Source of the DNA: Vicinamibacterales bacterium
GTDB lineage: Bacteria > Acidobacteriota > Vicinamibacteria > Vicinamibacterales > UBA2999
Direction: 5' to 3'
Length of the DNA: 64,000 nucleotides
Assembly (NCBI GenBank): GCA_035626435.1
Contig: DASPNQ010000227.1
Span: forward strand, 64,915 to 128,914
The position numbers and the translations under genes were made by a program. The notes beneath the pieces are model-generated. The model made no database searches, had not been told where the DNA came from, and was given only the letters and a program-made list of their open reading frames with translations. The number at the start of each line of letters is the position of its first letter. Within the stretch, counting starts at the first letter, position 1. Positions 1,279 through 52,220 of this stretch are shown here, piece by piece.

Positions 1279-1334
1279 CTGACAGGCCTGACAGGCCTGA
1301 CAGGCCTGACAGGCAGACAGGCAGACAGGCAGTC
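1279..1334. repeat. tandem repeat: CTGACAGGC x4, then AGACAGGC x2 (GACAGGC family)
   Basis: Read directly. Begins 4 nt after the HTH gene stop and ends 18 nt before the mini-ORF start. Confidence 0.95.
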
Positions 1335-7838: not shown

Positions 7839-9056
7839 ATGAGGTTTTGGAGGGAGGCTTCCGCCGAGGCGCGCAAGGCGCTGCTGGCCGGGTCACTGGG
7901 GTGGATGCTCGACGCCTTCGACGTGATGCTGTATGCCTTGGTGCTCACGGCGGTCGTCGAGGACCTGGGGCTGACGCGCGGGCAAGGCGGCTTGATGGCC
8001 TCTCTGACGTTGGCGGCATCGGCGGCCGGGGGGCTGATGTTCGGCGTGATCGCCGACAAGTTCGGCCGCACGCGAGCGCTGTCGTGGAGCATCCTCCTGT
8101 ACTCCGTCTTCACCTTCGCCTGCGGCTTCGCGCAGACGGTTACGCAGTTTGCGATCTTCCGCGTGATGCTGGGCCTCGGCATGGGCGGCGAGTGGGCCAG
8201 CGGCGCGGCGCTGGTCAGCGAGACGTGGCCCGAGAAGCACCGGGGCAAGGCGCTCGGCATCATGCAGAGCTGTTGGGCGATCGGCTACGCCCTCGCCGCG
8301 GTTGTGGTGGCAGTGGTACTGCCGCGATACGGCTGGCGAGCCGTGTTCTTTGTCGGAATTGCGCCCGCCCTGTTCACGTTGTGGATTCGCCGCAACGTGA
8401 AAGAACCGGCGATGTGGACAGGCCGGGCAGGCGGGGCAGGCGGGACAGGCGGGACAGGCATCGCCAAAGAAAAGTTTCCGCTCCGCATCGCGCTGTTTCT
8501 CACCGCGATGAATGCGGCGACGATGTTCGCGTGGTGGGGGTTGAATTTATGGGTGCCATCCTATCTGTCGCTGCCGACGACGCAAGGCGGCATTGGCCTC
8601 TCCACGGAAACGATGGCGATGTTCGTCGTCGCGATGCAGATTGGCATGTGGCTGGGTTACGTGTCGTTCGGCTTCATCGCCGATGCGTTCGGACGCCGGC
8701 CGACCTACATTTCGTATCTGCTGATCGCCGCGCTGCTCGTCTGGTACTACGGCTTCACGCGCGAGCCGTGGGTGCTGCTGCTGCTCGGGCCATTGGTGGC
8801 GTTTTTCGGCACCGGCTATTTCAGCGGCTTCGGTGCGGTGGCATCGGAGCTGTTTCCAACGTCGATCCGCGCGACCGCGTTGGGCGTGACCTATAACAGC
8901 GGCCGTCTCCTCAGCGCGATCGCGCCGTACATGGTCGGCACCATGGCCCAGAACCGGGGCTTCGGCGCGGCATTTACCCTGACCACGTTTGCGTTCATGG
9001 CGGCGGCGTTACTGTGGATTGGGATTCCGGAGACCAAGGGGCGAAAGATGATCTAG
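7839..9056 (+). CDS. MFS transporter
   Basis: 405 aa with a 12-helix hydrophobic pattern and the loop 2-3 motif GVIADKFGRTR. Confidence 0.8.
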   Translation: MRFWREASAEARKALLAGSLGWMLDAFDVMLYALVLTAVVEDLGLTRGQGGLMASLTLAASAAGGLMFGVIADKFGRTRALSWSILLYSVFTFACGFAQTVTQFAIFRVMLGLGMGGEWASGAALVSETWPEKHRGKALGIMQSCWAIGYALAAVVVAVVLPRYGWRAVFFVGIAPALFTLWIRRNVKEPAMWTGRAGGAGGTGGTGIAKEKFPLRIALFLTAMNAATMFAWWGLNLWVPSYLSLPTTQGGIGLSTETMAMFVVAMQIGMWLGYVSFGFIADAFGRRPTYISYLLIAALLVWYYGFTREPWVLLLLGPLVAFFGTGYFSGFGAVASELFPTSIRATALGVTYNSGRLLSAIAPYMVGTMAQNRGFGAAFTLTTFAFMAAALLWIGIPETKGRKMI

Positions 9057-10146: not shown

Positions 10147-10590
10147 TTACTCTGAGCCGAGAGCAAATGTCATAGCGCCGTTGATCACGGTTTTCCCATT
10201 GACGGTGGCGCGGCCCTGCAACACGCCCATACGGCTGCGCAGACGTTTGACGACCGCTTCGACGACCAGCACGTCTCCGGGGTGGACGGCGGCGCGGAAG
10301 CGCACGCGCTCCATGCCGCGGAAGAAAATCAGCTGATCCGTGTTTTCTGGCTTCGCCAGGATGAGGATCGCACCAACCTGAGCCACAGCCTCGGTCAGGA
10401 TGGTTGGCGGCAGCGACATGCGCCCGTTCACCGCGCGCGCCAGATACGGCTCGTTGCTCGACACGTTCTTGATACCGACAATGCGCGTATCCGGTTCGAA
10501 TTCGGTGATCTTGTCGACCAGGAGAAATGGATAACGGTGCGGCAGAATCCGTTCGATCGCGGAGTAGTCGAGAGGGAGGGTCAGGTCCAT
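10147..10590 (-). CDS. fabZ: 3-hydroxyacyl-ACP dehydratase FabZ
   Basis: 147 aa. ILPHRYPFLLVDKI and a hot-dog fold length typical of FabZ. Confidence 0.9.
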   Translation of the reverse strand: MDLTLPLDYSAIERILPHRYPFLLVDKITEFEPDTRIVGIKNVSSNEPYLARAVNGRMSLPPTILTEAVAQVGAILILAKPENTDQLIFFRGMERVRFRAAVHPGDVLVVEAVVKRLRSRMGVLQGRATVNGKTVINGAMTFALGSE

Positions 10591-10598
10591 TTAAGTAT

Positions 10599-10645
10599 CC
10601 GGGAGCCGGGAGCCGGGAGCGCAGCGCCGAATCCGGGAGCCGGGA
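10599..10645. repeat. tandem repeat CCGGGAG x3 + x2 (GGGAGC family)
   Basis: ccgggagccgggagccgggagc...ccgggagccgggaa, in the divergent fabZ / S9 peptidase spacer. Confidence 0.95.
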
Positions 10646-10680
10646 ACGAATTATACTTCGCGGGTTCGGAGGAACCGCGC

Positions 10681-12795
10681 ATGCGTAAGACCCTTCTCGT
10701 TGCCACGCTCATCTGCGCCGCATCCATTGCCTCTGCTCAAACCAAGAGCAGGGTCGCGACCTTTGATGATGTGCTTAACATCAAAGCCGTCCAGGGTGCG
10801 ACCGTTTCGCCGGACGGCCGCACGGTGATCTACACGGTTCGCCAGTGGGTCGTCGATCAGGATCCGCCGACTCCGCTGGCCGAGGCGCCAGCGTCGTCGA
10901 AGACAGGCCGCATCGAGGCGCGCACGCACATCTGGCGCGTGCCCGCGGACGGCAGCAGCGTGGCGCGGCAAATCACCTTTGGCGAGCGCGGCGACAGCCA
11001 GCCGCAATTTTCACCGGACGGTAAGTACATCAGCTTCGTGTCAGCACGCGGCTCCGCGGAAGCCAAGCCGCAGATCTACCTGATGTCCGTCGACGGGGGC
11101 GAGGCGTGGCGGCTCACCGACGCAAAAGAAGGTGTCTCGAGTCAAGGCGGCGGCGGCTATTCATGGTCGCCAGACAGCAGCCAGATCGCGTTCGTCACGC
11201 TCGATCCGCGCAGCGCCGAAGAAGAAGCCAACATCAAGAAGCGAGACGACGAGCGAGTCTTCGAGGGCGACTTCCGCTATCAGCACGCGTGGGTCATCAC
11301 GATCGCGAACAAGCACGCGACGCGTGTCACCGAAGGCACGCACTATACGGTGCAGGGCGCGCCGTCGTGGGCTCCTGACGGCAAGCGCTTCGTATTTGCG
11401 GCGTCAGCGACACCGATGCTCCGAGATGAACGCCGCGACGTCTATGTGGCGACGCTCGGCTCCGCCAACGCCGCCGGCGGCCCAGCCACGAGGATCGAGA
11501 AGATCAGCACCAACTTCGGCAATGACGCAGCGCCGCGGTGGTCGCCGGATGGTCAGACGATTGCGTGGTTGACGCAACCGAACACCGCAGCGCCCCTCCC
11601 CGATCAGACCGCGCCAAGCGTCATTACCCAACAGCGCCTGGTGTTGTATGACGTCAACGCAAAGACGATCAAGGACGTCAGCGCGACCACGTTCGACGTC
11701 GATCCGGGCAATCCAACGTTCACGAATGAAGGTAAGCGCGTGATGTTCGTCGCCGGCAAGCGCGCCTACAACGAAGTGTTCGCGTACGACCTTACCTCCG
11801 GCACCTATACCCAACTGACGCAACGCAAGACGATCAGCAACACATCCGTCAGCCGCGACGGCAAGACGATCGTGTTGACGATGGATGCGCCGGATGCGCC
11901 GGCGGAGGTGTATGTCACGGATCCGTCGTTCGCCAATCTCAAGCGGCTGACGGCCACCAACCCGCAGCTCGCCGAGATCGCGCAAGGCGAGACCGAAGTG
12001 GTGACGTGGAAAAGCGCCGATGGCGCCGAGATCGAAGGCGTCCTGTTGAAGCCGGTTGGCTATCAGTCCGGCAAACGGTATCCGACGTTAGTCGTCGCAC
12101 ATGGCGGTCCGGCGGGCGCCTTTGTGAACGGTTTCCGCTTTGGCGGACTCGAAGGCGGCCAGGTGTGGGCGGGCAACGGCTGGGCGGTGTTCTATCCAAA
12201 TCCCCGCGGCAGCTCCAATTACGGCGAAAACACCTTGCGCGCCAACGTCAACGATTGGGGCGGCGGCGATTTCAAAGATATCAACACCGGCGTCGACGCG
12301 CTGGTGGCGCGCGGCATCGCCGATCCCGAGAAGCTGGCGCACATCGGCTGGAGCTACGGCGGCTACATGACGGCGTGGACGATCACGCAAACCACGCGTT
12401 ACAAGGCCGCGATGGTCGGCGCCGGGTTGACGAACATGTGGAGCATGTACGGCACCAACGATATTCCCAGCGTCCTGATTGCCTATTTCGGCGGCATCCC
12501 GAACAAGCAAACGCTGCCGCTGTATCTGGATCGCTCGGCGATGACGCACATCGACAAAGCGAGCACGCCCACCCTGATCCTGCACGGTGCCAACGACGAG
12601 CGCGTGCCGACCGGGCAGGCGTACGAGTTGTATCGGGGACTCAAAGACCGCGGCACGCCGACGCAGCTGGTGTTCTATCCGCGCGAAGGGCACGGCATCA
12701 CCGAGTACTACCATCAGAAGGATCGAATGCAGCGGATCTACGACTGGGTGACGAAGTACACTCTAGGCGCCGCTGCGACTACAACCGCACAATAA
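10681..12795 (+). CDS. secreted S9-family serine peptidase (beta-propeller + prolyl oligopeptidase-type hydrolase domain)
   Basis: ATG 10681 preceded by GGAGG, with signal peptide MRKTLLVATLICAASIASAQ. Propeller-like repeats (FSPDGK, WSPDG) and nucleophile elbow GWSYGG. The track ORF from 10282 is an in-frame extension across fabZ. Confidence 0.85.
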   Translation: MRKTLLVATLICAASIASAQTKSRVATFDDVLNIKAVQGATVSPDGRTVIYTVRQWVVDQDPPTPLAEAPASSKTGRIEARTHIWRVPADGSSVARQITFGERGDSQPQFSPDGKYISFVSARGSAEAKPQIYLMSVDGGEAWRLTDAKEGVSSQGGGGYSWSPDSSQIAFVTLDPRSAEEEANIKKRDDERVFEGDFRYQHAWVITIANKHATRVTEGTHYTVQGAPSWAPDGKRFVFAASATPMLRDERRDVYVATLGSANAAGGPATRIEKISTNFGNDAAPRWSPDGQTIAWLTQPNTAAPLPDQTAPSVITQQRLVLYDVNAKTIKDVSATTFDVDPGNPTFTNEGKRVMFVAGKRAYNEVFAYDLTSGTYTQLTQRKTISNTSVSRDGKTIVLTMDAPDAPAEVYVTDPSFANLKRLTATNPQLAEIAQGETEVVTWKSADGAEIEGVLLKPVGYQSGKRYPTLVVAHGGPAGAFVNGFRFGGLEGGQVWAGNGWAVFYPNPRGSSNYGENTLRANVNDWGGGDFKDINTGVDALVARGIADPEKLAHIGWSYGGYMTAWTITQTTRYKAAMVGAGLTNMWSMYGTNDIPSVLIAYFGGIPNKQTLPLYLDRSAMTHIDKASTPTLILHGANDERVPTGQAYELYRGLKDRGTPTQLVFYPREGHGITEYYHQKDRMQRIYDWVTKYTLGAAATTTAQ

Positions 12796-12797
12796 TT

Positions 12798-12864
12798 GGG
12801 ACTAGGGAGCCAGGGAGCTAGGGAGCCAGGGAGCTAGGGAGCTAGGAGCTAGGGAGCCCGGGGC
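12798..12864. repeat. tandem repeat AGGGAGC(C/T) x8 (GGGAGC family)
   Basis: gggactagggagccagggagctagggagccagggagctagggagctaggagctagggagcccgggg, directly after the S9 peptidase stop. Confidence 0.95.
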
Positions 12865-12883
12865 CGGAAAAAACGAAAATCAA

Positions 12884-14689
12884 TTGTCCACGACTACCGC
12901 GCCGCCAAGCGGCGCTTCCGATGCCGAACTGCTGACAATCCTCGCCGAGCTGGCCCGAGAGGTCAGCTCGGTGCTGGATCTCGACGCGCTCCTCGAAAAA
13001 ATTCCCAACCTGATTTCGAGGCTGACGCAGTTCAGCGTGTTCTCGGTGTACCTCCTCGACAAGAAGCGCGAGGAGTTGGCAATTGCCTACGCGGTCGGCT
13101 ACCCCGAGGAAATCGTCAAGCACTTCACGATCAAGGTCGGCCAGGGGACGGTTGGCCGTTCGGTCGCGGAGCAGCGGCCGCTGCTGATAGACGACGTCGA
13201 CACGGATCCGCATTACCTCGCGGTCGTGCCCGGCGCGAAATCGCAGCTGTCGGTGCCGCTCCGCCACAAAGGTGAAGTGATCGGCGCGCTCAACCTGTTG
13301 AGCGACCGCAAAGCCGCTTTTACCGAGCGCGACGAATGGATCCTTCGACAGTTTGGCGCGCACGTCGCCCAGGCGATCGCGACGGCGAGACTCTTCGAGT
13401 CGGAACGCGAATACGCGGAAACGCTGGAGACGCTGGCGGAAATCGGCCGCGAGATGAGCGCAATCCTCGATCCCGCGGAGCTGCTGACCCGGCTGGCGCA
13501 ATTGATCAAGCGCGTCATCGACTATCGCATTTTCGGCATCGCGCTGCTCGACGAAGACACGCAGATGCTCGAGCTGAAGGTGACGATCAAGTACGGCGAC
13601 GACCCGCGGGCGACGATGCCCATCAAGATGGGCGAGGGCCTGGTCGGTTACGCCGCGCAGCACAAGGAAGTCGTGCTGGTGCCGGACGTCACCAAAGATC
13701 CGCGATACATCGATGCCGTGCCCGGCGTTCGGTCCGAGCTGGTCGTGCCGCTGTTGCTCAAGGATCGCTGTATCGGCGTATTCGACCTCGAGAGCCCCGA
13801 GCGCGACGCATTCAACGAAAAGCACGTCAAACTGCTGACGCTGCTCGCATCCGAAGCGGCGGTGGCGCTGGAAAATGCCCGACTCGTCGAATCGATCCGC
13901 GCCAATGAGGCGCGCTTCGAAAAGGAACTGCGGTTCGCTCAGCGCGTGCAGATGGCGCTGTTGCCGCAGGAACTGCCGAAGCGGCTGCGCGGCGTCGACG
14001 TGGCGTGGCACTTCGATCCGGCTCGCGAGCTCGGCGGCGACCTGTGTGATTTCCTGGCACCCGAGCCAAACACGCTGGTCGTGACACTCGGCGACGTGTC
14101 CGGCAAGGGCGTTCCCGCCGCGCTCTACAGCGCCGCCATCGGCGAGATGATTCGCGGCCGCACGTTCCGGCGCCGTCTCGAGAAGAAAAGCAGCACGCCG
14201 GCGGAGGTGCTGGCCGGCATGAACCGCATCCTGCACGAGCGCAACCTCGAGGAGTACTACTGCACGCTGTGCTACGCGATGTTCGAGTTCAAGAAGCAGA
14301 TCGTGACGTTCGCGAATTCAGGTCTGCCCTTCCCGGTGAAATGCTCGAACGGCAAGGCCGAGCAGATACACATGCCGGGTGTGCCGCTCGGCTCGTTCGG
14401 CAGCTCCACTTACGACGACTTCCAGGTGCCGCTCGCCGCGGGCGACGTATTCCTGCTGTGTTCGGATGGAATCTTCGAGGCGTTCGACGAGGCCGGCCAT
14501 GAATTCGGCGCTCACCGCGTCATCGATGTGTTGGAACGGAATTGCGGCCGCCCGGCCAAGGACATCGTGCAGGAAATCTTTGCTGCGGTACAGGCCTTCT
14601 GCGGCGATGCCGATCAGTCAGACGATCGGACGGCTGTGGTCGTCAAAATCAACCAACTCGGTCCCGGAAAACCCCACGCGGACGCCTAG
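12884..14689 (+). CDS. GAF-GAF-PP2C (SpoIIE-family) protein phosphatase
   Basis: 601 aa with two GAF-like domains. PP2C signatures follow: ELGGDLCDF, LGDVSGKG, CSDGIFEA, QSDDRTAVV. TTG start. Confidence 0.85.
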   Translation: MSTTTAPPSGASDAELLTILAELAREVSSVLDLDALLEKIPNLISRLTQFSVFSVYLLDKKREELAIAYAVGYPEEIVKHFTIKVGQGTVGRSVAEQRPLLIDDVDTDPHYLAVVPGAKSQLSVPLRHKGEVIGALNLLSDRKAAFTERDEWILRQFGAHVAQAIATARLFESEREYAETLETLAEIGREMSAILDPAELLTRLAQLIKRVIDYRIFGIALLDEDTQMLELKVTIKYGDDPRATMPIKMGEGLVGYAAQHKEVVLVPDVTKDPRYIDAVPGVRSELVVPLLLKDRCIGVFDLESPERDAFNEKHVKLLTLLASEAAVALENARLVESIRANEARFEKELRFAQRVQMALLPQELPKRLRGVDVAWHFDPARELGGDLCDFLAPEPNTLVVTLGDVSGKGVPAALYSAAIGEMIRGRTFRRRLEKKSSTPAEVLAGMNRILHERNLEEYYCTLCYAMFEFKKQIVTFANSGLPFPVKCSNGKAEQIHMPGVPLGSFGSSTYDDFQVPLAAGDVFLLCSDGIFEAFDEAGHEFGAHRVIDVLERNCGRPAKDIVQEIFAAVQAFCGDADQSDDRTAVVVKINQLGPGKPHADA

Positions 14690-22052: not shown

Positions 22053-22811
22053 TTAGAACGTCGGCAGGTACGGTGTCAGCCACTGCGCGATCACCGTGAA
22101 GCGGTTGGTGAAGATCAACACGCCGATCACGATCATCAGCAGGCCCGAGACGATTTCAATCGCGTGATAGTAGCGACGAATCTTGGAGAACGCGACGAAG
22201 AACTGGTTGATGGCCATCGCCGTCAGCAGGAATGGAATCGCAAGCCCGAGCGAGTAGATCGACAGCAGCACGATCCCCTGGTTCACCGACTCCTGCTGCG
22301 CGGCGACCAGCAGGATCGCCGACAGGATCGGGCCGATGCAGGGCGTCCAGCCAAAGGCGAACGAGATGCCGACGATGACGGCGCCGATCATGCTGGCGGG
22401 CTTGGTGTTGGCTTGCACGCGCGCCTCGTTGAGCAGGAACGGAATCTTGAAGACGCCGATGGTGTGCAGGCCGAAGATGATCAGCAACACGCCCGCGACT
22501 TTCCCGAAGATCGTCAGCCGTTCCATCAGGAACTGGCCGAGATAGGTCGCTGACGCGCCCAGCGATACGAAAACGAGTGAAAACCCGAGGATGAAAAACA
22601 GCGACGTGACGATGACCTGCCGCTTGGCCGCGGCGCTGACGCCGGCGTTGGCCGCCACGGCGCCGCCGGCCGCAACCGGCATGCCGCGCATCTCTTCGAG
22701 CGACACGCCGGAGATAAACGACAGATAGCCGGGAATCAAAGGCAGCACGCAGGGCGAGATGAAGCTCAGAACCCCCGCCACGAAGGCGCCGAAGAGCGAG
22801 ACGTTTTCCAT
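22053..22811 (-). CDS. ccdA: cytochrome c biogenesis thiol-disulfide transporter CcdA (DsbD-family membrane core)
   Basis: 252 aa with six TM helices. Conserved Cys in SPCVLPLIPGY and WTPCIGPIL. Confidence 0.85.
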   Translation of the reverse strand: MENVSLFGAFVAGVLSFISPCVLPLIPGYLSFISGVSLEEMRGMPVAAGGAVAANAGVSAAAKRQVIVTSLFFILGFSLVFVSLGASATYLGQFLMERLTIFGKVAGVLLIIFGLHTIGVFKIPFLLNEARVQANTKPASMIGAVIVGISFAFGWTPCIGPILSAILLVAAQQESVNQGIVLLSIYSLGLAIPFLLTAMAINQFFVAFSKIRRYYHAIEIVSGLLMIVIGVLIFTNRFTVIAQWLTPYLPTF

Positions 22812-22813
22812 TT

Positions 22814-22878
22814 CAGGCAGTCAGGCGGTCAGGCAGACAGGCCGACAGGCAGACAGGCGGACAGGCCGACAGGCCGCC
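22814..22878. repeat. tandem octamer repeat NGWCAGGC x8 (GACAGGC family)
   Basis: caggcagtcaggcggtcaggcagacaggccgacaggcagacaggcggacaggccgacaggcc, between the ccdA start and the nuoG-like stop. Confidence 0.95.
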
Positions 22879-24825: not shown

Positions 24826-27600
24826 CTACCTTTTTTCGAGAATCGCCAGCGCCGCGCCGTCCGGATTGGTGTCGATCGACCGCGGGTTGCCGGTGAGCGG
24901 CAGCCGCGCCTCGGTCAACGCCTCGTTGGCGACGACGACGAACTCGGCTGTCTTGCCGTCGCCGTAGGTGACCGCCACGGTCACCGGGATGTCGTAAATG
25001 TCGCCGGTTTGCTCGAACCGCACGACGAGCTCCTGGCCCTCGACGACCGTGGAATAGCGCACGCGCGGAATGCCGTTGTCGTAAATCCACCGCTCGAAGA
25101 ACCGGGCGAGGTCGCGCTTGCTGGCGGTCTCCATTGCTTTCCGCAGATCGTCAGTGCCCGCCTTCCTGTAGCGGTTCTCCGCGTAGAAGGTCTTGATGCC
25201 GCCGAAAAACGCCTCGTCGCCAATGACCCGCCGCAGCATGTGTAACACCGCCGCACCTTTGTTGTAGACCAGCGCGCGGAAGACACGGCTGTCGCCTTTG
25301 ATGTGGCCGAGGCGATAGCCCAGGTACACCGGCCCTTGATCGGACGTTTCCACCGACCAGCGGCGGAACTGCCGGAGGATCTCGCGAAATGCGTTTTCGC
25401 CGCGCTTTTCGCGCGCGAAGAGCGCCGCGAAATATTGCGCGAAGCCCTCGCTGAGCCACTGCTCGTGATAGTTCTTCCACCCGACCGCCTGCCCGAACCA
25501 CTGATGCGCAAGCTCGTGGGCCAGAAAGAATTCCGGAAAGCCCTGAAACATCGCAGGGTCGTTCCGCCAGCTTACCTGCGTGACGGGCGGCGGGTTGTTG
25601 ATCATCGCGAAGTATCCCGGCGCGTGGCCGCCAGGCAGTTCATCTTCGACGAGCGCCATTGTGATGCTGGCGTACGGCACGTCCCCCGTCAGCGACGCAT
25701 ACAGCTGCAGGATATCGGCGCCGTTGGCCATCGCGGCCGCCGCTCGCGATTCCTGCCGACGCACCGCATCGACCCTGAGCACGACGGTGTTACGCGCGCC
25801 CACCGGCGGCACCGCCGCCGCCGTGTTCAAGCGCGTGATTTGCTGCGCGAGCGTTGACGCACCGCGCATGTCCGGTGGCGGCGCATTGGCGGGCACGATG
25901 TCGAGCGCCACCGTTGCCGCGTCGGTGCGCTGCATCTTGCTGACCACCATGCCGAGGTAGCGAACCGGCTGCGGCGCCGCGAATGTATAGGCCACGCGAG
26001 GGACGACGCGAGATGATCCGTCGACAATCGCCGCCGCCGTCGGCGCCGGCGAGCCTGGTTCGGGGATGCCCGACGCAACGACGGCGTATTCGGCGGGTAC
26101 GATCATGCGGATGTGCGCCGACGCGTAGTCGCTGACCTGGTTCTGCGGATACCAGTAGCTGCGATTACTGAACAGCCACTTCGGCTCCGGCTGAACGACG
26201 ACCACATCGTCTGGCTGTGCGGTCCGCTGATCGACCTCGATCAATTCCTCCTGAGCGGTCTGTCGCGGAATACGGCCGGCGTACGCAATCGTCAGCGTCA
26301 TCAAGAAGTCGCGCGACACGGGCTGTGGCAAATTGACGAGGATGCTGTTTTGGTTGCGCACGCGCAGGAACAGCAACCTGCCGAATTCGTCGCTGCTGAC
26401 CGATGACACGTTCAGGTTGTCGTTGAAACGCAACGTCAGTACGCCGGTCGACAGCGACTTGATGCGGAGGGACAGTCGGGTGCGCCCCTCCATCCACTCG
26501 CGCTCGGGGGTGAAGCTCGCATCCACGTCGTAATTGATGACGTCGTAATCGACCAGGTCGTCTTCGTCGAAGAACCTGCCGCGAGCGGCGAGCTTGTGCT
26601 CGGAGGCGTAGGCGGCGATATTGCGCTTGCGGGCGCGCTGAAACAGCGTGACGTCTTCCGCTTCACCGGTCGAACGCGCGTAGGTGAGGTGGTCGAACCG
26701 CCGCGTGTTGACTTCAGCGACGAAGTCGCCAGGTTGCGGCAACAGCGACCAGACATCGCGGCTCAAGTCGCTGAGATCGAGGTTGAAAGATTTCGGGAGG
26801 CCCTCGTCGAACACTTGCAGCGCGCGCCTGTAGTCGCGGCTGTCGAGCGCAACCGGCACCAGCATGTCGTCAGTGAGCCGGCGCTCGAATTCGTACGGGC
26901 TCAGACGGACGAACGCGGTGGTAAACGGCGTCTCGAGCGTCTCGGTTCCCGCAAACAGTTTCAGCTGGCCCTTTTCCTCTTTCGGCATCGGCTGAAACAC
27001 CATCGTGCCGTCACCGATCAACACAATCGCGGTGAGCCCTTCCGGCGTTTCGGCGACGAAAACATCGCCGTCGGGCAATCGCAGTTCGAAGTCGACCGCC
27101 CGCAGCACCAGGTTCTTCGCGGCGTACTGCTTCTCTGCATTGAGCGTCAATCGATGCAGCCCTTCGATCGACGCCAGCCGATCCTCCGCAACGACGCGCC
27201 ATGGTTGGGCGCCAATATCCTCGCCGCGCGGGCGGCGAATGTCGAGCCGCCACGTCGCGATGCGGCCGCGGGCGCCCGTTTCGATGAAGACTTCGACGAC
27301 GAGCCGAAAGCCTTCGCCGGGGAGCGTCCCTTGCAGCTCCACGCGATCGCGCTCCTTCACGACGACCCGGGTGATACCTTGCGGGACCATCGCGTCGAAG
27401 AAGCCGAGAGACTGCTCGCGGTTCGCGGCAGGTGACAGCAGGCTCGTCCAGCGCTGGCGGTCCATCGACACGATCGAGGTCTCGAGCTCTTTGAGGAACG
27501 CCTGAATGGACAGATCTTCAGCGTCGACAGGCCGTGGGGTTTGACCTGCAATCGCCGGGGCGCCGGCAAAAACGAACAGGAACAGCAGTCTTACAAACAT
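24826..27600 (-). CDS. secreted M1-family zinc metallopeptidase (large, 924 aa)
   Basis: Signal peptide MFVRLLFLFVFAGAPAIAG. Gluzincin motif HELAHQWFG...WLSEGFAQY. Confidence 0.8.
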   Translation of the reverse strand: MFVRLLFLFVFAGAPAIAGQTPRPVDAEDLSIQAFLKELETSIVSMDRQRWTSLLSPAANREQSLGFFDAMVPQGITRVVVKERDRVELQGTLPGEGFRLVVEVFIETGARGRIATWRLDIRRPRGEDIGAQPWRVVAEDRLASIEGLHRLTLNAEKQYAAKNLVLRAVDFELRLPDGDVFVAETPEGLTAIVLIGDGTMVFQPMPKEEKGQLKLFAGTETLETPFTTAFVRLSPYEFERRLTDDMLVPVALDSRDYRRALQVFDEGLPKSFNLDLSDLSRDVWSLLPQPGDFVAEVNTRRFDHLTYARSTGEAEDVTLFQRARKRNIAAYASEHKLAARGRFFDEDDLVDYDVINYDVDASFTPEREWMEGRTRLSLRIKSLSTGVLTLRFNDNLNVSSVSSDEFGRLLFLRVRNQNSILVNLPQPVSRDFLMTLTIAYAGRIPRQTAQEELIEVDQRTAQPDDVVVVQPEPKWLFSNRSYWYPQNQVSDYASAHIRMIVPAEYAVVASGIPEPGSPAPTAAAIVDGSSRVVPRVAYTFAAPQPVRYLGMVVSKMQRTDAATVALDIVPANAPPPDMRGASTLAQQITRLNTAAAVPPVGARNTVVLRVDAVRRQESRAAAAMANGADILQLYASLTGDVPYASITMALVEDELPGGHAPGYFAMINNPPPVTQVSWRNDPAMFQGFPEFFLAHELAHQWFGQAVGWKNYHEQWLSEGFAQYFAALFAREKRGENAFREILRQFRRWSVETSDQGPVYLGYRLGHIKGDSRVFRALVYNKGAAVLHMLRRVIGDEAFFGGIKTFYAENRYRKAGTDDLRKAMETASKRDLARFFERWIYDNGIPRVRYSTVVEGQELVVRFEQTGDIYDIPVTVAVTYGDGKTAEFVVVANEALTEARLPLTGNPRSIDTNPDGAALAILEKR

Positions 27601-27801
27601 TCAGTCAGGCAGACAGGCAGACAGGCCGACAGGCAGTCAGGCAGTCAGGCCGACAGGCCGACAGGCAGGCAGTCAGGCCGACAGGCCGACAGGCAGTCAG
27701 GCAGCACGTGGTCATCATCAAAGACTCCTTTGACCCCTGTCGGTCTGCCGTCCGCCTGTCTGCCTGTCCGCCTGTCTGCCTGTCTGCCTGTCTGCCTGCC
27801 T
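27601..27801. repeat. fold-back array: ~12 NGWCAGGC octamers (27601-27703), 33-nt loop, then the complementary GCCTGTC array (27737-27801)
   Basis: Read directly. Starts at the base after the M1 peptidase start codon. Both arms are periodic and mutually complementary. Confidence 0.95.
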
Positions 27802-27830
27802 GGTATTAGACCCCGGTGGGACGAAAAGTT

Positions 27831-29018
27831 CTATACCTGGGGCGCGTCCGCTAACCTGCTCAGCACCAGCACGGTGAGGTCGTCCTGCAGCCGCTGGTCG
27901 CGGCGGTGGCGTTCGACGGCGTCGAAGACAGCGCGGCCGAGCTCGGCGGCAGCAGATTTCTGATAGGCGCCCGCATACAACGCGAGCGTGCGCTCGAGAC
28001 CCGCCTCGTCAAACGCCTGGCCATCGGGACTTTCGGCTTCAGTCAAGCCATCGCTGTACATCAACAGCGCGTCACCCGGGTTGAGGTGCACTTCGCCCGC
28101 CTTGTAGGTACTCCCGTCGAACATGCCGAGCGCCACGCCTCCGCTCATCAAGCGTTCGATCGTGCCATTTTGCCGGCGGAGCAACGGTGGTGTCTGGCCC
28201 GCGTTGACGAACTCGAGGCGGCCGCTCGTCGGATCAAAGCAGGCGAGAAACAAAGTGATGAATCGCGACGGCGGCGCGTGCCGCGTCACCTGCAGGTTGA
28301 GCCGCTGCACCAACGCCGGCAACGGCAGCCGTTCATCGACGAGCGTGCGCAGCATCGCCAGCAGCAACGCCATCAACAGAGCCGCGGGACTGGCTTTGCC
28401 CGCGACGTCGCCAAGTGCAACGAGCACGGTGCCGTCGGGCTGAGGCAGGATGTCGTAGAAATCGCCGCCGACGGTGTTGGCGGGCTTGGTCAGGCCGAAC
28501 GCTTCGACGCCGGGTCCGGACCACGTGCCGTTGGGCAGCATCGCGTTCTGAATCTCGCGCGCCACTTCCAGATCGCGTTTGAGCGAGAGCCGGTCCGCGA
28601 CCTCGAGCAGCACCAGCAGGTTCATCAACAGGAAGCCAGCAAGCAGCCACACCGTACCGTCGGAAAACACCGGCCCTGGCACGCGAACATGGACGAAGAA
28701 CAGCGCGATCGGAATGGGAACCCGAATCAGGCCGAAGCCGTTGAAGAGCTGCAACAGGCCGATGACGGCAAACGCAAGTGCCACGCCGTACATCAGGCGG
28801 CGAGCCGGCGACAGGCGCATCGTGAACGCCAGGAAGAACGCCTGCGCGTACTTGATGACGCGCTTGTACCAGGGCAGGCCCTCGAGCTCCGCGGTGTTGA
28901 TGCCGCGCGCGAAGAACCGGTACGCCTCCGGCGTCTCGCGCGTAAAAAGCTTGCCGAGCTCGTCCGACGTCAGGTCGTGCGTGTAACGGCTGAAGAAGTC
29001 TCTAGGCATCGCTGACAA
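27831..29018 (-). CDS. membrane-bound PP2C (SpoIIE-family) protein phosphatase
   Basis: 395 aa. N-terminal TM helices, then GGDFYD, LGDVAGKG, YSDGLTEA, QDDLTVLV. Confidence 0.85.
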   Translation of the reverse strand: MSAMPRDFFSRYTHDLTSDELGKLFTRETPEAYRFFARGINTAELEGLPWYKRVIKYAQAFFLAFTMRLSPARRLMYGVALAFAVIGLLQLFNGFGLIRVPIPIALFFVHVRVPGPVFSDGTVWLLAGFLLMNLLVLLEVADRLSLKRDLEVAREIQNAMLPNGTWSGPGVEAFGLTKPANTVGGDFYDILPQPDGTVLVALGDVAGKASPAALLMALLLAMLRTLVDERLPLPALVQRLNLQVTRHAPPSRFITLFLACFDPTSGRLEFVNAGQTPPLLRRQNGTIERLMSGGVALGMFDGSTYKAGEVHLNPGDALLMYSDGLTEAESPDGQAFDEAGLERTLALYAGAYQKSAAAELGRAVFDAVERHRRDQRLQDDLTVLVLSRLADAPQV

Positions 29019-34477: not shown

Positions 34478-34540
34478 CTGCAGATCTTAGCCGCGATCAC
34501 CCACGCAATGCGTGGCGCGATGCGTGGTTCCGCTCCCCCC

Positions 34541-34848
34541 GGTTGTTAGGTGCCAGGTACACTCCACCCACACGGGGTTGCTAGGTGCCAGGTACAGTCC
34601 AACCACTGGCGGTTGGCCGGTGCCAGGTACATCTAGGCCGGATTGGTGTTGATCGCTGGGCTTGCCTGCTGCAATTGGGCCGAAAATCGCCGCGCTGAAC
34701 GACTCATCGGCGCCGGTTGAACTGTACCTGGCGCCTTCCGACCAGTTGGGCAGTCCATGCAACTGCACGTGGCCCCGGCGTGCCGGCGGTTGAACTGTAC
34801 CTGGCCCTTAAGAACCGGGGGTGAGGTGTACCTGGCCCTTAACAACCA
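34541..34848. repeat. composite inverted repeat: three ~35-nt units with core GGTGCCAGGTAC facing three (plus one degenerate) inverted units with core GTACCTGGC(G/C)C
   Basis: Forward cores at 34549, 34584 and 34619. Inverted cores at 34724, 34797 and 34828, with a degenerate copy at 34765. Outer, middle and inner units pair with each other (for example GGTTGTTAGGTGCCAGGTACAC versus the complement of GTGTACCTGGCCCTTAACAACC). Confidence 0.9.
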
Positions 34849-35014
34849 GCGGGTGGGGTAAAGGGCAGGCGCGACGGCGAATTGCATCACCCGTCATGTA
34901 ATAGCTACACGCTTACACGTCCATACGGCCGATGCTGCACCTCGACTGTGTGGACTAAACAACTGAAAACACATGGGTTATTCGATTGGCAAGAAACTTG
35001 GTTATGTCGGGGGC

Positions 35015-36017: not shown

Positions 36018-36683
36018 ATGCGTAACTCCCTTATGACAATCGGTGTGATGGTAGCCGCGCTCAGCGTGGCGCCGGCTTGCGCGACCAAGAAATTCGTGCG
36101 CACGTCGGTCGGCGAAGTGAATGACAAGGTCGTCACCCAGGGCAAGTCGCTCGAAGAGACGCAGGAACGGGTACGCGCCGCCGAAGGGCGCATCAGCGAA
36201 ACCGACGCCAAGGCGATCGCCGCCGCCGAAGCGGCGCGCAAGGCCGACGCGGCCGCCGCTGAAGCGGCCGGCAAGGCCGCGGAAGTCGGAACCCGCGCGG
36301 CCTCGATCGAAGGCGAGATGCGCAAGCTGATCTTCGAAACGGTGCTCAGCGAAGACCGCGGCCAGTTCAAGCTTGGCAAGACCGAGCTGCCGCAGGATGC
36401 GACCTCCGCCATCGACTCGATGGTCAACACCCTGAAGACGGACAAGAAAGCCGTGTGGGTCGAAATCGAGGGCCACACCGACAACACCGGCGACAAGACG
36501 TATAACGAACGCCTCGGACTGGCGCGCGCCGAAGCCGTGAAGCGGTATCTCTACGAGAAGCACCAGATTCCGCTGCACAAGATCAACGTGATCAGCTACG
36601 GCGAAGAGAAGCCGGTGGCGCCGAACAACACTCGCGCCGGCCGCGCCCAGAACCGCCGCGTCGTGATCAAGGTGCTCGCGTAG
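36018..36683 (+). CDS. OmpA-family lipoprotein with Ala/Glu-rich coiled-coil linker
   Basis: AAGGAG lies 8 nt upstream of ATG 36018, and a lipobox-like SVAPAC is present. OmpA_C motifs HTDNTGDKTYNERLGLARAEAV...NRRVVIKV. Confidence 0.85.
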   Translation: MRNSLMTIGVMVAALSVAPACATKKFVRTSVGEVNDKVVTQGKSLEETQERVRAAEGRISETDAKAIAAAEAARKADAAAAEAAGKAAEVGTRAASIEGEMRKLIFETVLSEDRGQFKLGKTELPQDATSAIDSMVNTLKTDKKAVWVEIEGHTDNTGDKTYNERLGLARAEAVKRYLYEKHQIPLHKINVISYGEEKPVAPNNTRAGRAQNRRVVIKVLA

Positions 36684-36693
36684 ACGGGCCGGC

Positions 36694-36830
36694 AGGCCAA
36701 TGGGCCAATGGGCCAATGGGCCAAGGGGCTGATGGGCCAATGGGCCAATGGGTTGATGGGCCAAGGGGCCAAGGGGCCAAGAGGCCAAGGGCCGAAAGTC
36801 AATAGGCGCCAACAAGCCAACAGCCCAGCA
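36694..36830. repeat. tandem nonamer GGGCCAATG/GGGCCAAGG x~11, decaying into CCAAC/AGCAA repeats
   Basis: ggccaatgggccaatgggccaatgggccaaggggctgatgggccaatgggccaatgggttgatgggccaaggggccaaggggccaagaggccaaggg. Lies between the OmpA-family stop and its terminator. Confidence 0.95.
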
Positions 36831-36834
36831 AGCA

Positions 36835-36866
36835 ACCCGACGGGAATTATTCCCGTCGGGTTTCTT
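36835..36866 (+). terminator. rho-independent terminator
   Basis: acccgacgggaat-t-attcccgtcggg followed by tttctt. An 11-12-bp perfect stem plus T tract, downstream of the OmpA-family gene and its repeat array. Confidence 0.8.
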
Positions 36867-36883
36867 GTGTACACTGCTAGGGC

Positions 36884-38352: not shown

Positions 38353-39093
38353 ATGAATCTTCCACGCACAGTTGCACTGATCACCGGCGGCAAGCGCATT
38401 GGCGCCGTCGTCGCGACGACACTCGCCGCGGCGGGCAGCGACGTGGCGCTCGTCTACAATCGCTCGCGCGCCGAGGCCGATCAGACCGCAGACGCGATCC
38501 GGACCGCCGGCCGGCGTGCGCTCGTCGTGCAAGCTGACGTCAGCAGCGATGAGGCTTGCGTCGCCGCCGTCACCGCCACGGTCGCGCAATTCGGCCGGCT
38601 CGACATCCTGATCAACATGGCCTCCCTGTATGCCGCTAAACCGTTCGAGCAATTGTCGGTCGCCGACTGGGATCGACAGCTCGCGGTTGATCTTCGCGCA
38701 TCGTTCGTCTTCGCACACGCCGCGGCGCCGCACATGAAGCGCGCCGGCGGCGGTCGGGTGATCAACTTCTCCGATTGGGTAGCCGCGAGCGGGCGGCCGC
38801 GATACCCGGGTTATGTCCCTTACTACGTCGCGAAAGCCGGCGTGAGAGCGTTGACCGAAGCGTTGGCGCTGGAACTCGCCGGCGATCAGATTCTCGTCAA
38901 CGCGATCGCGCCTGGGCCAATCCTCGCACCACCCGAGCTGTCGCAGGACGAACATGACGCCGTGATGAGGAGCACGCCGCTCGGCCGCTGGGGCGGCGAA
39001 GCCGAGATCGCCAAGGCGGTGATGTTTCTGGTCAACTCGGATTTTGTGACAGGCGAGACGATTCGCGTGGATGGTGGAAGACACCTGAAATGA
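38353..39093 (+). CDS. SDR-family oxidoreductase
   Basis: Rossmann motif ALITGGKRIG and YxxxK (YYVAKAG). Start uncertain (38353 or 38335). The track start 38209 is probably too far upstream. Confidence 0.8.
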   Translation: MNLPRTVALITGGKRIGAVVATTLAAAGSDVALVYNRSRAEADQTADAIRTAGRRALVVQADVSSDEACVAAVTATVAQFGRLDILINMASLYAAKPFEQLSVADWDRQLAVDLRASFVFAHAAAPHMKRAGGGRVINFSDWVAASGRPRYPGYVPYYVAKAGVRALTEALALELAGDQILVNAIAPGPILAPPELSQDEHDAVMRSTPLGRWGGEAEIAKAVMFLVNSDFVTGETIRVDGGRHLK

Positions 39094-39275
39094 CAGTCTG
39101 CAGTCGACAGTCGGCAGTTCAGAGTCAAGTTGGGCAGTCGACAGTCGGCAGTTAACGGTCGTAGGGCCATCGACAGTCGGCAGTGAAGAGTCAAGTTGGG
39201 TAGTGGACAGTCGGCAGTTGACGGTCGAGTTGGTCAGTCAACAGTCAGAGATCGGCGGCAGTTGGCAGTCGACGA
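39094..39275. repeat. periodic repeat: core GACAGTCGGCAGT x4 at 32-34-nt spacing, with alternating related inter-core segments (CAGTC family)
   Basis: Cores at 39106, 39140, 39172 and 39206. Units 1/3 and 2/4 resemble each other. A tail of CAGTC/GGCAGT words runs to 39275. Confidence 0.9.
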
Positions 39276-39987: not shown

Positions 39988-41158
39988 GCTCTTCGCGCGA
40001 CCGGCAGGTGCAGAAGCGCAGGTAGCCTTCGCTGCTGGCGCCGAAGTCGACGCCGGGCACGCAGCCGATGCGCGCGTGTTTGATCAGGAATTCAGCCGTC
40101 GCCCACGACAACGATTCCTCCGCGTTCGCCGAAGCATCCGCACGATTGGCGCCGGTAATGCCGGCACTCTTTGCGAACTCCGGATTGATCTTCACGAACG
40201 CGTAGAACGCGCCGTCTGGCGGGTTGCCCGAGAACACGCCGGGGGCGGCATCTTCGAGACCCTGGTAGAACAGGTCACGCCGAATCAGCAGCTCCTTCTT
40301 GAAGTCATCGATACACTGCTGCGAGCCTTCCATGGCGCCGAGCGCGCCGTACTGCGCGATCGACGAAACGTTACTGGTGGTGTAGAGGATGATCTTGAGC
40401 GCACGACTGCGAAGCGCTTCGTCCTTGATCGCGAAGTAACCGACGCGCACCCCGGTGATCGCATAGCTCTTGCTGAGCGTGTAGACGGGGATCGTCCGAT
40501 CGTACATGCCAGGTAGCGACGCAATGCTGACGTGTTCGCCCTTGAAGACGACGTCCTCGTAGGCTTCGTCGGAGACAACCCACAAATTGCGATCGCGAGC
40601 GATTTGCGCAAGTTTCTCGATGTCCTGGCGAGTCAACACGCCGCCGGAGGGGTTGTTCGGCGAATTGATGTACAGCACGCGCGTCTTCGGCGTGATCGCC
40701 TTTTCGACGTCGGCGATGTCCCATCGCCACCCCAACTCTTCGCGCAACGGCACCTGCACCGCGACGCCGCCAGCCGCCTTCACCATCGCCATCGTCGGGG
40801 GCCACTCGGGTTCCGGAATGATCACCTCGTCGCCCGGCTCGAGCAGCGCATGGAAGACGGCGTAGAGGCCATGCGTACCGCCGTTGGTCACCATGACTTC
40901 TTCGTCGGAGCCGATCGGGATGCCGTTCTTCCTGCGCATCTTTTCCGCGAACGCCTTGCGCAGCGGCGGAATGCCAACCGTCGGCAGGTAGTGCGTACGA
41001 TTTTCCGCCATCGCCTTGGCGACCGCTTGCTTGAAGGTGTCAGGAGCGTCGAAGGAGACGTCGCCCTGATCGAGGCGAAACGGGTCCTTGACGGTGTACA
41101 TCATGTCGCGGATGCGAACGATCGCCGAGACCGGAACTGAGTCGTAGAACTTGCCCAT
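39932..41158 (-). CDS. class I PLP-dependent aminotransferase (aspartate/aromatic type)
   Basis: 408 aa. NGGTHGL, NSPNNPSG, TLSKSYAITG (PLP lysine). The 3' end overlaps the convergent TMEM175 gene by 56 nt. Confidence 0.8.
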   Translation of the reverse strand: MGKFYDSVPVSAIVRIRDMMYTVKDPFRLDQGDVSFDAPDTFKQAVAKAMAENRTHYLPTVGIPPLRKAFAEKMRRKNGIPIGSDEEVMVTNGGTHGLYAVFHALLEPGDEVIIPEPEWPPTMAMVKAAGGVAVQVPLREELGWRWDIADVEKAITPKTRVLYINSPNNPSGGVLTRQDIEKLAQIARDRNLWVVSDEAYEDVVFKGEHVSIASLPGMYDRTIPVYTLSKSYAITGVRVGYFAIKDEALRSRALKIILYTTSNVSSIAQYGALGAMEGSQQCIDDFKKELLIRRDLFYQGLEDAAPGVFSGNPPDGAFYAFVKINPEFAKSAGITGANRADASANAEESLSWATAEFLIKHARIGCVPGVDFGASSEGYLRFCTCRSREELTGALASMKETLARVPAR

Positions 41159-41159
41159 A

Positions 41160-41201
41160 GAAGTTAGAAGTTAAAAGTTAAAAGTTAAAAGTTAGAGTTA
41201 A
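41160..41201. repeat. AT-rich tandem heptamer AAGTTA(A/G)
   Basis: aagttagaagttaaaagttaaaagttaaaagttagagttaag. Overlaps the stop and last codons of the MetF-like gene and abuts the aminotransferase start codon. Confidence 0.95.
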
Positions 41202-51198: not shown

Positions 51199-52110
51199 CT
51201 ATTTCTTACGGATCGTATCGAGCATTTCGATTGCGGCTTCGGAAATGGCCACGACCGCCGGGTGTTTCAAGCGCCTTTCCACGGAAATCGCGAAATAGCG
51301 CTCGCGAACGTCATCCAGCCGTCCCACGACCGTCACACCAAACTGCCGCATTACTTCTTTTTCGAGGACCGTCGGCGCGACGAACAGACCTGTCCCGGCC
51401 TGGCCGAAGGTCGTCAACAGCGCGCTATCGTCGAGCTCGGCCACGATGCGGGGCCGGATTTGCTGCTGCTCGAAAAACTGATCGAGCGTGCGCCGCAGCG
51501 TCTTGCCGACGGTCGGCACGAGAAACGGCGCGCCGTCGAGCGAGCGGGGAAAGTTCTTGCGGCGCGGCGCCGCCAGCTTCGCGGTGCCGAACACCGTCAC
51601 CGGCGTCTCGCCGAGCGGGTGGCTGAACACCTTGATCTTGATCGACGGGGCGACCGGCGTGTCGGCAATCACGAGGTCGAGCGCATGCGTAGCGAGATCC
51701 GTGAGCAGGCGTTCGGGCGCTCCGTCGCGGCAGACGATGTGGACGGGCTGTTCGAGCCTGAGCGCGGGCTCGAGCAGACGATACGCGATGATCTTGGTGA
51801 CCTCGTCGGCGACGCCGACCTGGAATCGCATCGGCCGGCCGGTGGGCCGATCCTTCAGCGTGTCCATCAACTCGCGGCCCAGGCTGAAAATGTCGTCGGC
51901 ATAGCGAAAGACGACACGGCCCATATCGGTGAGGACGAGATTGCGCCCGGAGCGCAGGAACAGTTTTTCGCCGAGCTGTTCTTCGAGCGCGCGGATCTGC
52001 CCGCTGATGGTTGGCTGCGCGAGACGCAGCTCGATACTCGCCCGCGCGATCGTGCCCTCGCGAGCCACCGTCCAGAAATAGAGAAGGTGGTGGTAGTTCA
52101 GCCACTCCAT
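51199..52110 (-). CDS. LysR-family transcriptional regulator (NhaR-like)
   Basis: N-terminus [51 protein letters not shown] closely parallels the NhaR HTH. Confidence 0.8.
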
Positions 52111-52112
52111 CG

Positions 52113-52220
52113 TCAGTCAGCAGTCAACAATCGGCAGTTCACAGTTGCAGTCTTGCCGTCGACAGTCCCAGTCGGCCAGTCGGCCAGTCGTTCAGTCGAG
52201 TCAGAGAGTCTTTCAGTCAC
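52113..52220. repeat. degenerate CAGTC-word repeat (CAGTC family, related to 39094-39275)
   Basis: cagtcagcagtcaacaatcggcagttcacagttgcagtc...gacagtcccagtcggccagtcggccagtcgttcagtcgagtcagagagtctttcagtcac, in the divergent LysR / purE spacer. Confidence 0.9.

Follow-up and report, generated by a model that had tools for sequence, protein, structure and literature searches.

Between a gene for a SpoIIE/PP2C phosphatase and a gene for an M1-family peptidase, in a 64,000-nt stretch of DNA from a Vicinamibacterales bacterium of the phylum Acidobacteriota (contig DASPNQ010000227.1; the stretch as a whole is called the window in what follows), lies a spacer that is occupied by an array of octamers and, beyond a short unique centre, by the inverted counterpart of that array. 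The initial annotation of the stretch had drawn attention to this arrangement between two genes of the same strand, and it is real: Tandem Repeats Finder (TRF) and an inverted-repeat search recover the array and its partner, and both flanking genes are on the - strand. The features are collected in Table 1. The best reading of the element is that it is the largest member seen here of a lineage-wide class of slippage-grown repeat hairpins in Vicinamibacterales spacers; treating it as a single locus, as had been done at the outset, is sound for the locus itself but misses a class that extends through the genome and the lineage.

Table 1. Genes, hairpin components and related arrays (window coordinates; TRF, Tandem Repeats Finder)
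Feature	Position	Strand	Basis and remarks
M1-family peptidase gene	24826-27600	-	open reading frame (ORF) list; PF01433, E 1.7e-28
ATG-proximal arm	27602-27704	-	3' arm in - strand RNA; period-8 array, 13.4 copies (TRF)
Hairpin centre, unique	27705-27742	-	38 nt between the arrays; sequence and minimum-free-energy structures
Promoter-proximal arm	27743-27802	-	5' arm in - strand RNA; period-8 array, 7.6 copies (TRF)
Promoter-like motif, conserved	27805-27833	-	between PP2C stop and hairpin
SpoIIE/PP2C phosphatase gene	27831-29018	-	ORF list; PF07228, E 7.7e-50
GACAGGC-family array	22814-22874		7.6 copies, one orientation; TRF, pattern search
GACAGGC-family array	1279-1330		CTGACAGGC x4 then AGACAGGC x2; TRF, pattern search

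The arms differ in length, 103 nt against 60 nt. The ATG-proximal array, previously put at about 12 octamers, is there (81% matches by TRF) with a larger copy number than that, the count in Table 1 including one 4-nt half unit; on the + strand its units read CAGGCAGA (x2), CAGGCCGA (x5) and CAGGCAGT (x5) besides the half unit, and they have a higher-order period of 24-28, with CAGGCCGA/CAGGCAGT amplified in blocks of three. The promoter-proximal array (88% matches; TRF unit GTCTGCCT, the reverse complement of the other array) is likewise present, but it starts at about 27743 rather than at 27737, and its units in the RNA are CAGGCAGA (x4) and CAGGCGGA (x2). The 33-nt unique loop that had been described (cacgtgg...gacccc) is found at 27705-27737, and a small apex hairpin, CAAAG-ACTC-CTTTG at 27719-27732, is tucked inside the unique centre. 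The best ungapped inverted arms are 53 nt long with 89% complementarity, and the same search returns 13 more pairings in shifted register, as the periodicity of both arms had led the initial annotation to expect. The outer two to three units of both arms are exact mirrors of one another (CAGGCAGA), whereas the inner units are private to one arm: CAGGCGGA is confined to the promoter-proximal arm, CAGGCCGA and CAGGCAGT to the ATG-proximal one. Both arrays are long simple sequence repeats in the accepted sense (a head-to-tail unit of 5-11 nt, longer than chance allows) and, since they occupy the spacer between two called genes, both are intergenic. A pattern of two consecutive units of this GACAGGC family occurs 29 times in the window, where 0.74 would be expected by chance. 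A coding role for the array was considered and set aside: the + strand ORFs at 27534-27809 and 27541-27963 are not selected by a codon-bias gene caller, and the period, 8, is not divisible by 3.

The very long stem that had been proposed is what the minimum-energy prediction gives. For the - strand RNA of 27560-27850 the folding energy is -160.8 kcal/mol (z -8.5), which none of 200 shuffled sequences equals; the + strand of the same interval folds at -157.7 kcal/mol (z -9.6). The 204-nt spacer from the TCTAAT box of the promoter-like motif to the M1 ATG, folded by itself, reaches -141.0 kcal/mol (z -11.8); of its 80 pairs, 62 join the two arrays and only four are G-U. The M1 start codon (27600-27598) is 1 nt removed from the array, the predicted stem ends 2-3 nt before the AUG, and the 20 nt that precede it (-20 to -1) have a mean pairing probability of 0.89; inspection of the sequence before the AUG finds no Shine-Dalgarno element. 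In the light of this computed structure, 'translation occluder', one of the roles that had been suggested for the element, is a fair reading. No Rfam family is found anywhere in the window at gathering thresholds. The M1 protein has an N-terminus that resembles a signal peptide (MFVRLLFLFVFAGAPAIAG...) and the PP2C protein has hydrophobic N-terminal segments in its translation; an exact-protein look-up finds no identical protein on record for either.

What lies on the other side of the hairpin bears on the transcript to which it belongs. The PP2C stop codon is 28 nt upstream of the hairpin, and a -35-like TAGAAC (27833-27828) overlaps that stop codon (TAG, 27833-27831); it is followed, after a conserved spacer of 17 nt (TTTTCGTCCCACCGGGG), by a -10-like TCTAAT (27810-27805). 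This motif is found directly 3' of the PP2C stop codon in 72 distinct relatives, with the consensus TAGCcg-N17-TCTAAT and with GGCGTCTAAT near invariant; it occurs once in the window. (The single occurrence disposes of GTCTAAT as a general promoter box.) The motif is kept at any distance from the ATG, even where 204 nt separate the two, which suggests that it still works, and we infer that it is the M1 promoter; transcription would then be predicted to start near 27798, in the first bases of the promoter-proximal arm. With a conserved promoter-like motif between PP2C stop and hairpin, the hairpin is probably the M1 leader itself and not only part of a PP2C read-through transcript. The initial annotation had placed the stem in such a transcript, which is possible, but had missed the motif downstream of the PP2C stop codon. 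By eye, no hairpin is conserved within the motif; among the relatives only L024 has one there (AGACGCC...GGCGTCT).

The relatives on which these statements rest are 80 species-level loci, retrieved by way of the M1 protein at identities of up to about 75%, and they tell more about the interval between TCTAAT and ATG, the slot in which the hairpin lies. In 22 of 76 loci the M1 start is 5-7 nt past G[TC]CTAAT (exactly 6 nt in 19), which is the spacing that a -10 hexamer would have if it drove a leaderless mRNA. Such geometry appears to be common. TANNNT peaks 6-9 nt before called starts, with 49, 23, 33 and 71 hits where the background is about 4 (counts that are inflated by the recurrence of orthologous genes across loci), and Shine-Dalgarno-like tetramers are weakly enriched before called starts in all loci plus the window, which suggests that leaderless or near-leaderless mRNAs are widespread in Vicinamibacterales.

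In the remaining 54 loci the slot measures 9-204 nt, and what fills it differs: a short unstructured leader (L089, L097), a simple non-periodic hairpin (L081, L084, L085/88, L098, L008), an array in one orientation (L082, L083, L096, L029), or inverted arrays (L002, L005, L011, L017, L021, L086, L090 and the window). The units can be wholly different between species (CAAGGGTTA, GGTTCCAnn, TGAGGnCT, CCGGGCT), and the copy number ranges from 0 to 13. The comparison of arms between related genomes that had been proposed as a check thus finds a hypervariable slot, ranging from no insert to 204 nt. In a tree of the M1 N-terminus the 6-nt state is on deep branches and the inserts are in one derived clade, from which it follows that the ancestral gap between TCTAAT and ATG was 6 nt; sister taxa can differ greatly (98 nt in L086, 17 nt in L089). 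Two sets of matches connect the states of the slot. The stem of the simple L085 hairpin (GGGCGAAC/GTTCGCCC) matches the repeat unit of both L090 arrays, and the ATG-proximal units of the window (GGCCTGTC/GGCCTGAC) match the one-way arrays (GGCCTGnn) of L082, L083 and L096. Taken with the arm-private units, these matches argue that the arms of a small hairpin were amplified and then slipped separately.

Some further observations on these loci can be set down here. L035/L051 was considered as a second case of the order motif, hairpin, start, and was rejected: its hairpin is followed by its own TAGAAT-N6-GTG, and the likeness further upstream is coincidental. In L102 (an ERZ1370068 contig) the box after the PP2C stop codon reads GAGTCTGACC and an intact GAGTCTAAT is found in the loop between the arrays; this contig has apparent M1 frameshifts, and it may be a sequencing artefact or a rearranged variant. 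PP2C-M1 contigs also turn up under the labels Cyanobacteriota, Acidimicrobiia or Bifidobacteriaceae (L003, L004, L023, L024, L027, L029, L030, L054, L065, L072, L076); these labels probably reflect mistakes in binning or labelling. The spacer that separates M1 from a NuoG-like gene (~0-150 nt after the M1 stop codon in L001-L080, locus positions ~12700-12900) is as hypervariable as the slot upstream of M1: depending on the locus it is empty or contains a direct array, a simple hairpin or inverted arrays. It has no significant hairpin in about half of the loci, and in many loci with a next gene of + strand orientation it ends in a -10-like box (TATCAT, TACAAT or TAGAAT) ~9 nt before the start of that gene.

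The element is not peculiar to this spacer. A census of the window and the 80 loci (1.49 Mb; genes called by codon bias, repeats by TRF) finds 249 arrays, with periods of 7, 8 and 9 dominant, although these loci share their neighbourhood and orthologous spacers recur, and the counts are consequently not independent. Spacers make up ~122 kb (~8%) of this sequence and hold 195 of the arrays, a ~43-fold enrichment. Array density is 2.6 per kb in convergent spacers, 1.9 in co-directional and 0.47 in divergent ones. An inverted partner lies within 300 nt of 88 of the 195 intergenic arrays (~45%), a separated direct partner in the case of three. Strict inverted pairs number 34, distributed as 28 in co-directional spacers, six in convergent and none in divergent ones, which contribute 29% of the spacer bases. 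From the upstream stop codon to the beginning of a co-directional pair the median distance is 2.5 nt, and ~20 nt remain between the end of the pair and the next start. Across the 34 pairs the lengths of the two arms are correlated (rho 0.54, p 9e-4), which fits either a palindromic origin or a pressure to keep arms paired. The repeat units differ between loci and between species.

Soil metagenomes provide independent material. Contigs of three soil runs (X1-X3) compared over 27150-27745 have 0 differences from the window at the junction of the M1 start with the ATG-proximal arm, in the order of the units of that arm and in the centre; since they reproduce junction, units and centre, the element is not an assembly artefact. 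The depth of contigs over the array is 300-365x that of the flank, and ~100 contigs with unrelated flanks match the GACAGGC-type array in each of the three metagenomes. The excess depth and the unrelated flanks together show that the unit family is dispersed over many loci. Short-read contigs end exactly at a box/array or gene/array boundary (L087; runs X1-X3 at 27632-27635), and arrays that fragment short-read assemblies at gene boundaries affect the contiguity of metagenome-assembled genomes and the annotation of gene starts in Acidobacteriota.

Parts of this picture are familiar from other bacteria. In Xanthomonas, arrays of the heptamer GGGAATC are ~90% intergenic, mostly between co-directional ORFs, less often between convergent and rarely between divergent ones, and at or overlapping stop codons; 70-75 pairs per genome are convergently oriented, potentially forming stem-loops or cruciforms, the lengths and sequences of the arrays vary between close species, and most are transcribed, with no function established (Rehm et al. 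2015, PLoS One, PMC4692102). The likeness is in the close, convergent placing of arrays on opposite strands (here 53-nt arms with 89% complementarity, 38 nt apart) and in a nearly identical distribution over spacers. The differences are that Xanthomonas has one dominant G-rich unit with quadruplex potential, whereas Vicinamibacterales, which belong to the Acidobacteriota, have many unrelated unit families per genome; that the units CAGGCAGA, CAGGCCGA and CAGGCAGT contain no run of three G; that the period here is 8, not 7; and that the element at M1 follows a promoter-like box and runs up to a start codon, in a slot with an ancestral length of 6 nt.

The nearest functional precedent is hmw1A of H. 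influenzae, where an upstream (ATCTTTC)n tract is transcribed in the 5' untranslated region (5' UTR) and forms a long hairpin that RNase III cuts, raising expression; expression scales with copy number, and the repeat number can change only when the tract is transcribed, the RNA hairpin forms and RNase III is present (Rapun-Araiz et al. 2025, NAR, PMC12721329). The two elements share a tract of 7-8 nt repeats between promoter and start codon (in our case a putative promoter) and repeats that form an arm of a long stable hairpin (in our case by prediction: -141 kcal/mol, 62 inter-array pairs). In hmw, in contrast, only the left arm consists of repeats and pairs with a unique G-rich region, while here both arms are arrays; and hmw is a phase-variable pathogen adhesin with proven population-level length switching, while the gene considered here encodes a housekeeping-looking secreted peptidase.

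Two other kinds of repeat invite comparison. Repetitive extragenic palindromes (REPs) of enterobacteria and pseudomonads and the bacterial interspersed mosaic elements (BIMEs) that they make up are extragenic, transcribed, found right behind stop codons and missing from divergent promoter regions, and their proposed roles include protection of mRNA 3' ends, attenuation and interference with translation. The likeness is in hairpin formation, in the frequently inverted clusters, in extragenic, presumably transcribed location and in the empty divergent spacers. REPs, though, are fixed, imperfectly palindromic units of 20-40 bp that carry a GTAG or CGTC tag and are linked to the REP-associated tyrosine transposases (RAYTs) (PMC3733652), whereas the stem here is built from arbitrary tandem units of 7-9 nt, with no tag. 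As for long simple sequence repeats, the account that PMC4679880 gives of Mrazek et al. 2007 has units of 5-11 nt (heptamers commonest) abundant in scattered bacterial genomes and slippage proposed as their origin. These repeats, the cyanobacterial heptamer repeats and the TAACTGA repeats of Beggiatoaceae resemble the arrays described here in being mainly intergenic, some directly upstream of starts; those descriptions concern arrays of one orientation (for TAACTGA, one indirect repeat in 170 sets), unlike the paired inverted architecture that is common here (~45% of intergenic arrays). A published description of such repeats for Vicinamibacter or Acidobacteria was not found. Inverted arrays (Xanthomonas) and a repeat hairpin (hmw) were already known; the present case differs in the many unit families per genome, in having arrays in both arms, in the promoter-like box upstream and in its occurrence in Acidobacteriota.

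How might the element have arisen, and what might it do? The reading that we favour, and to which we assign about an even chance, is that it is a hairpin of repeats, grown by slippage within the M1 leader, that hides the start region and serves as a damper of expression or as a processing substrate. The arms of a small hairpin would have been amplified by slipped-strand mispairing, each arm then continuing to slip independently while staying broadly complementary to the other. Transcribed as M1 5' leader from the motif (and also in any PP2C read-through), the element would form an imperfect stem of ~62 bp extending from close to the 5' end to 2-3 nt before the AUG. Lacking a Shine-Dalgarno element and with its -20 region paired, the M1 message would be translated less, or in a gated manner. 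The long double-stranded stem would also present a substrate for RNase III-type processing, which is plausible by analogy, and its copy number could be an evolvable tuning knob, as in the 5'-UTR hairpin of hmw.

A number of points weigh against this. The transcription start, the processing and the effect on M1 expression are all inferred. TCTAAT has C where the canonical -10 box has A at position 2, and a sigma-70 consensus scan of 27300-28100 flags no promoter, the TCTAAT box included. The arms mismatch about once per unit, and ~43 nt of the longer arm are unpaired with the other arm. The element is dispensable, sister taxa being without it and some relatives one-armed. In the three soil assemblies no copy-number polymorphism is seen, although contigs hide rare variants and break inside the array. 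Finally, pairs of the class elsewhere are usually placed between a stop codon and the -10 box of the next gene, and such a position upstream of the box makes it unlikely that the general function of the class is leader-specific.

The element may instead be a selectively neutral or mildly selfish by-product with no maintained function: slippage-prone spacer DNA gains arrays wherever they are tolerated and the fold does no more than loop the RNA away, leaving the flanking signals adjacent. The optional nature of the element, in the slot upstream of M1 as well as in the one downstream, its fast turnover between sister taxa, the arbitrary units that vary by locus, the private variants that one arm has amplified with nothing to match them in its partner, and the presence of arrays in every spacer type, convergent ones included, are what one would then see. 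We nevertheless consider this explanation rather unlikely: all 34 strict pairs are co-directional or convergent, and none falls in the divergent spacers in spite of their 29% share of spacer bases; arm lengths are correlated; a stem of 62 bp over a start region should cost expression, so that tolerance itself needs explaining; and random birth does not predict one unit family at many loci of one genome.

A broader proposal goes further than our favoured reading. Periodic hairpins may be a distinct, transposase-independent class of repeats: hairpins of transcribed spacers, whose arms grow by hairpin-dependent slippage, whose unit families are genome-specific, and which are retained as tuning or insulating devices at the RNA level. 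At this locus such a hairpin would have given a leaderless gene a leader that consists entirely of a self-contained stem, with its 5' end brought back to the AUG. We offer this only tentatively, as an unlikely extension.

The positions of class pairs raise another possibility, that the hairpin is a REP-like 3'-end element of PP2C, stabilising its transcript against exonucleases or acting as a U-tract-independent or Rho-assisted terminator or insulator, with M1 served by read-through. The split of the pairs over spacer types (28, 6 and 0), their start so soon after stop codons and their end ~20 nt short of the next start fit such a function, as does the agreement with the distribution of the Xanthomonas arrays (PMC4692102), and REP elements are distributed in the same way; at the locus itself the hairpin starts 28 nt past the PP2C stop codon. 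The promoter-like motif, however, precedes the hairpin, and between hairpin and ATG there is no space for a promoter. The initial annotation had listed a strong factor-independent terminator among the candidate roles, and this is not supported: a scan of 27300-28100 for an intrinsic terminator (G+C-rich stem, short loop, U-tract) finds none, the tail after the stem (UGAAUGUUUGU) belongs to the start of the coding sequence, and no T-runs follow the hairpins of the class. Such a terminator, if strong, would also deprive M1 of a promoter, since the array runs up to the ATG. The genome does have canonical terminators of the hairpin-plus-U kind (one is at 36838-36870), so that termination would call for no other device. 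On balance we regard a 3'-end function as quite doubtful.

Action at the level of DNA, by a cruciform or slipped-strand structure that affects supercoiling, replication or the binding of nucleoid proteins, is very improbable. Long non-palindromic centres and unequal or imperfect arms disfavour the extrusion of cruciforms, and the element has a non-palindromic centre of 38 nt, arms of 103 and 60 nt and 89% complementarity. The cruciform that had been listed as a candidate is thus possible energetically, the single-stranded DNA of the element folding at -81.4 kcal/mol (z -12.5), but its extrusion is unlikely. The structure is equally good on both strands, and the possibility has been raised for the Xanthomonas pairs (Rehm et al., PMC4692102); the bias against divergent spacers, which are probably not transcribed through, points instead to a property of the RNA or one linked to transcription.

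That a mobile element, a miniature inverted-repeat transposable element (MITE) or one of REP/RAYT type, was inserted here is scarcely credible: the GACAGGC unit family is indeed dispersed (three window spacers and the ~100 contigs per soil metagenome), but there is no fixed palindromic unit, no GTAG/CTAC tag (absent from the 204-nt element, which has one incidental internal GACG), no terminal inverted repeat apart from the arrays and, by eye, no target-site duplication at the three GACAGGC-family arrays, while copy numbers and unit variants differ at every locus and array families differ between slots and species. Three assignments to known types were rejected. For a MITE, the arrays are the sole inverted sequence and no duplication is visible by eye at the ends; for REP/BIME, the unit is a non-palindromic octamer without the tag, and other spacers have unrelated units; for a CRISPR array, the 8-nt units follow directly on one another, in contrast to repeats of 24-48 bp that are separated by unique spacers of similar size.

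The element as such can be explained by known processes. If the class is what the favoured reading makes of it, a major and little-studied soil phylum builds much of its intergenic RNA structure from fast-mutating arrays, not from fixed sequences. The slot would then be a natural series for the birth of 5' leaders, beginning with a gap of 6 nt and passing through short leaders, simple hairpins and arrays in one arm to end in a two-arm hairpin of 204 nt, and tuning by repeat hairpins and RNase III, shown for one adhesin gene of a pathogen, would extend to ordinary genes of free-living bacteria. What is worth following is a class that is indifferent to its unit, its preference for spacers into which a gene reads, the scattering of unit families over loci and the slot series.

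The window contains ~13 spacer arrays of this class. About a dozen arrays other than the element have periods of 7-11 and unrelated units (ATCTCGTG, GGGAGCTA, GGCCAATG, GACAGTCG, AAGTTAA, ATCTGGTG, CGTTCTACGGG). Such arrays often fill the whole spacer and abut stop or start codons. The larger of the two other GACAGGC-family arrays of Table 1 takes up the spacer from the NuoG-like gene to the gene that comes next, whose start codon (22811) it adjoins; a metagenome contig with the flank of this array also aligned to the hairpin element. The arrays at 41156-41201 (AAGTTAA) and 22809-22874 (CAGGCAGA) end 2 nt from starts at 41158 and 22811 that have no Shine-Dalgarno element, a layout that is the same as at the M1 start.

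Other repeats of the window are of more varied kinds. A 495-nt divergent spacer (34480-34980) has 35-nt direct repeats at 34540-34631 (2.6 copies, core GGTGCCAGGTACA) and 31-nt repeats at 34796-34859 (two copies, core TGTACCTGGCCC); the two sets are mutually inverted and look like paired protein-binding sites, not like a short-unit array. At 36695-36870, a stop codon at 36683 and the canonical intrinsic terminator (CCCGACGGGAA-TTA-TTCCCGTCGGG followed by TTTCTTGTG, ~36838-36870) enclose a GGCCAATG array (12.5 copies) and a short GCCAACAA array, and the GGCCAATG array is probably in a 3' UTR. A period-9 GACAGGC-like array (GGACAGGCG, 4.9 copies) at 8416-8459 is inside a called gene (7839-9056, + strand) and, translated by hand, is in frame as Gly-rich W-T-G-R-A-G-G-A-G-G-T-G-G-T-G. 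A CCGGGAG array at 10580-10660, flanked by inverted AAGTAT/ATACTT, falls inside the longest ORF (10282-12795), the start of which has for this reason probably been miscalled; the array would then be in a divergent spacer. A complex array at 39092-39273 has nested periods of 7, 14, 34 and 66 (GACAGTC/GGCAGTC units with interspersed AAGTTGG), and its CAGTCGG-type family recurs 13 kb away, at 52110-52220.

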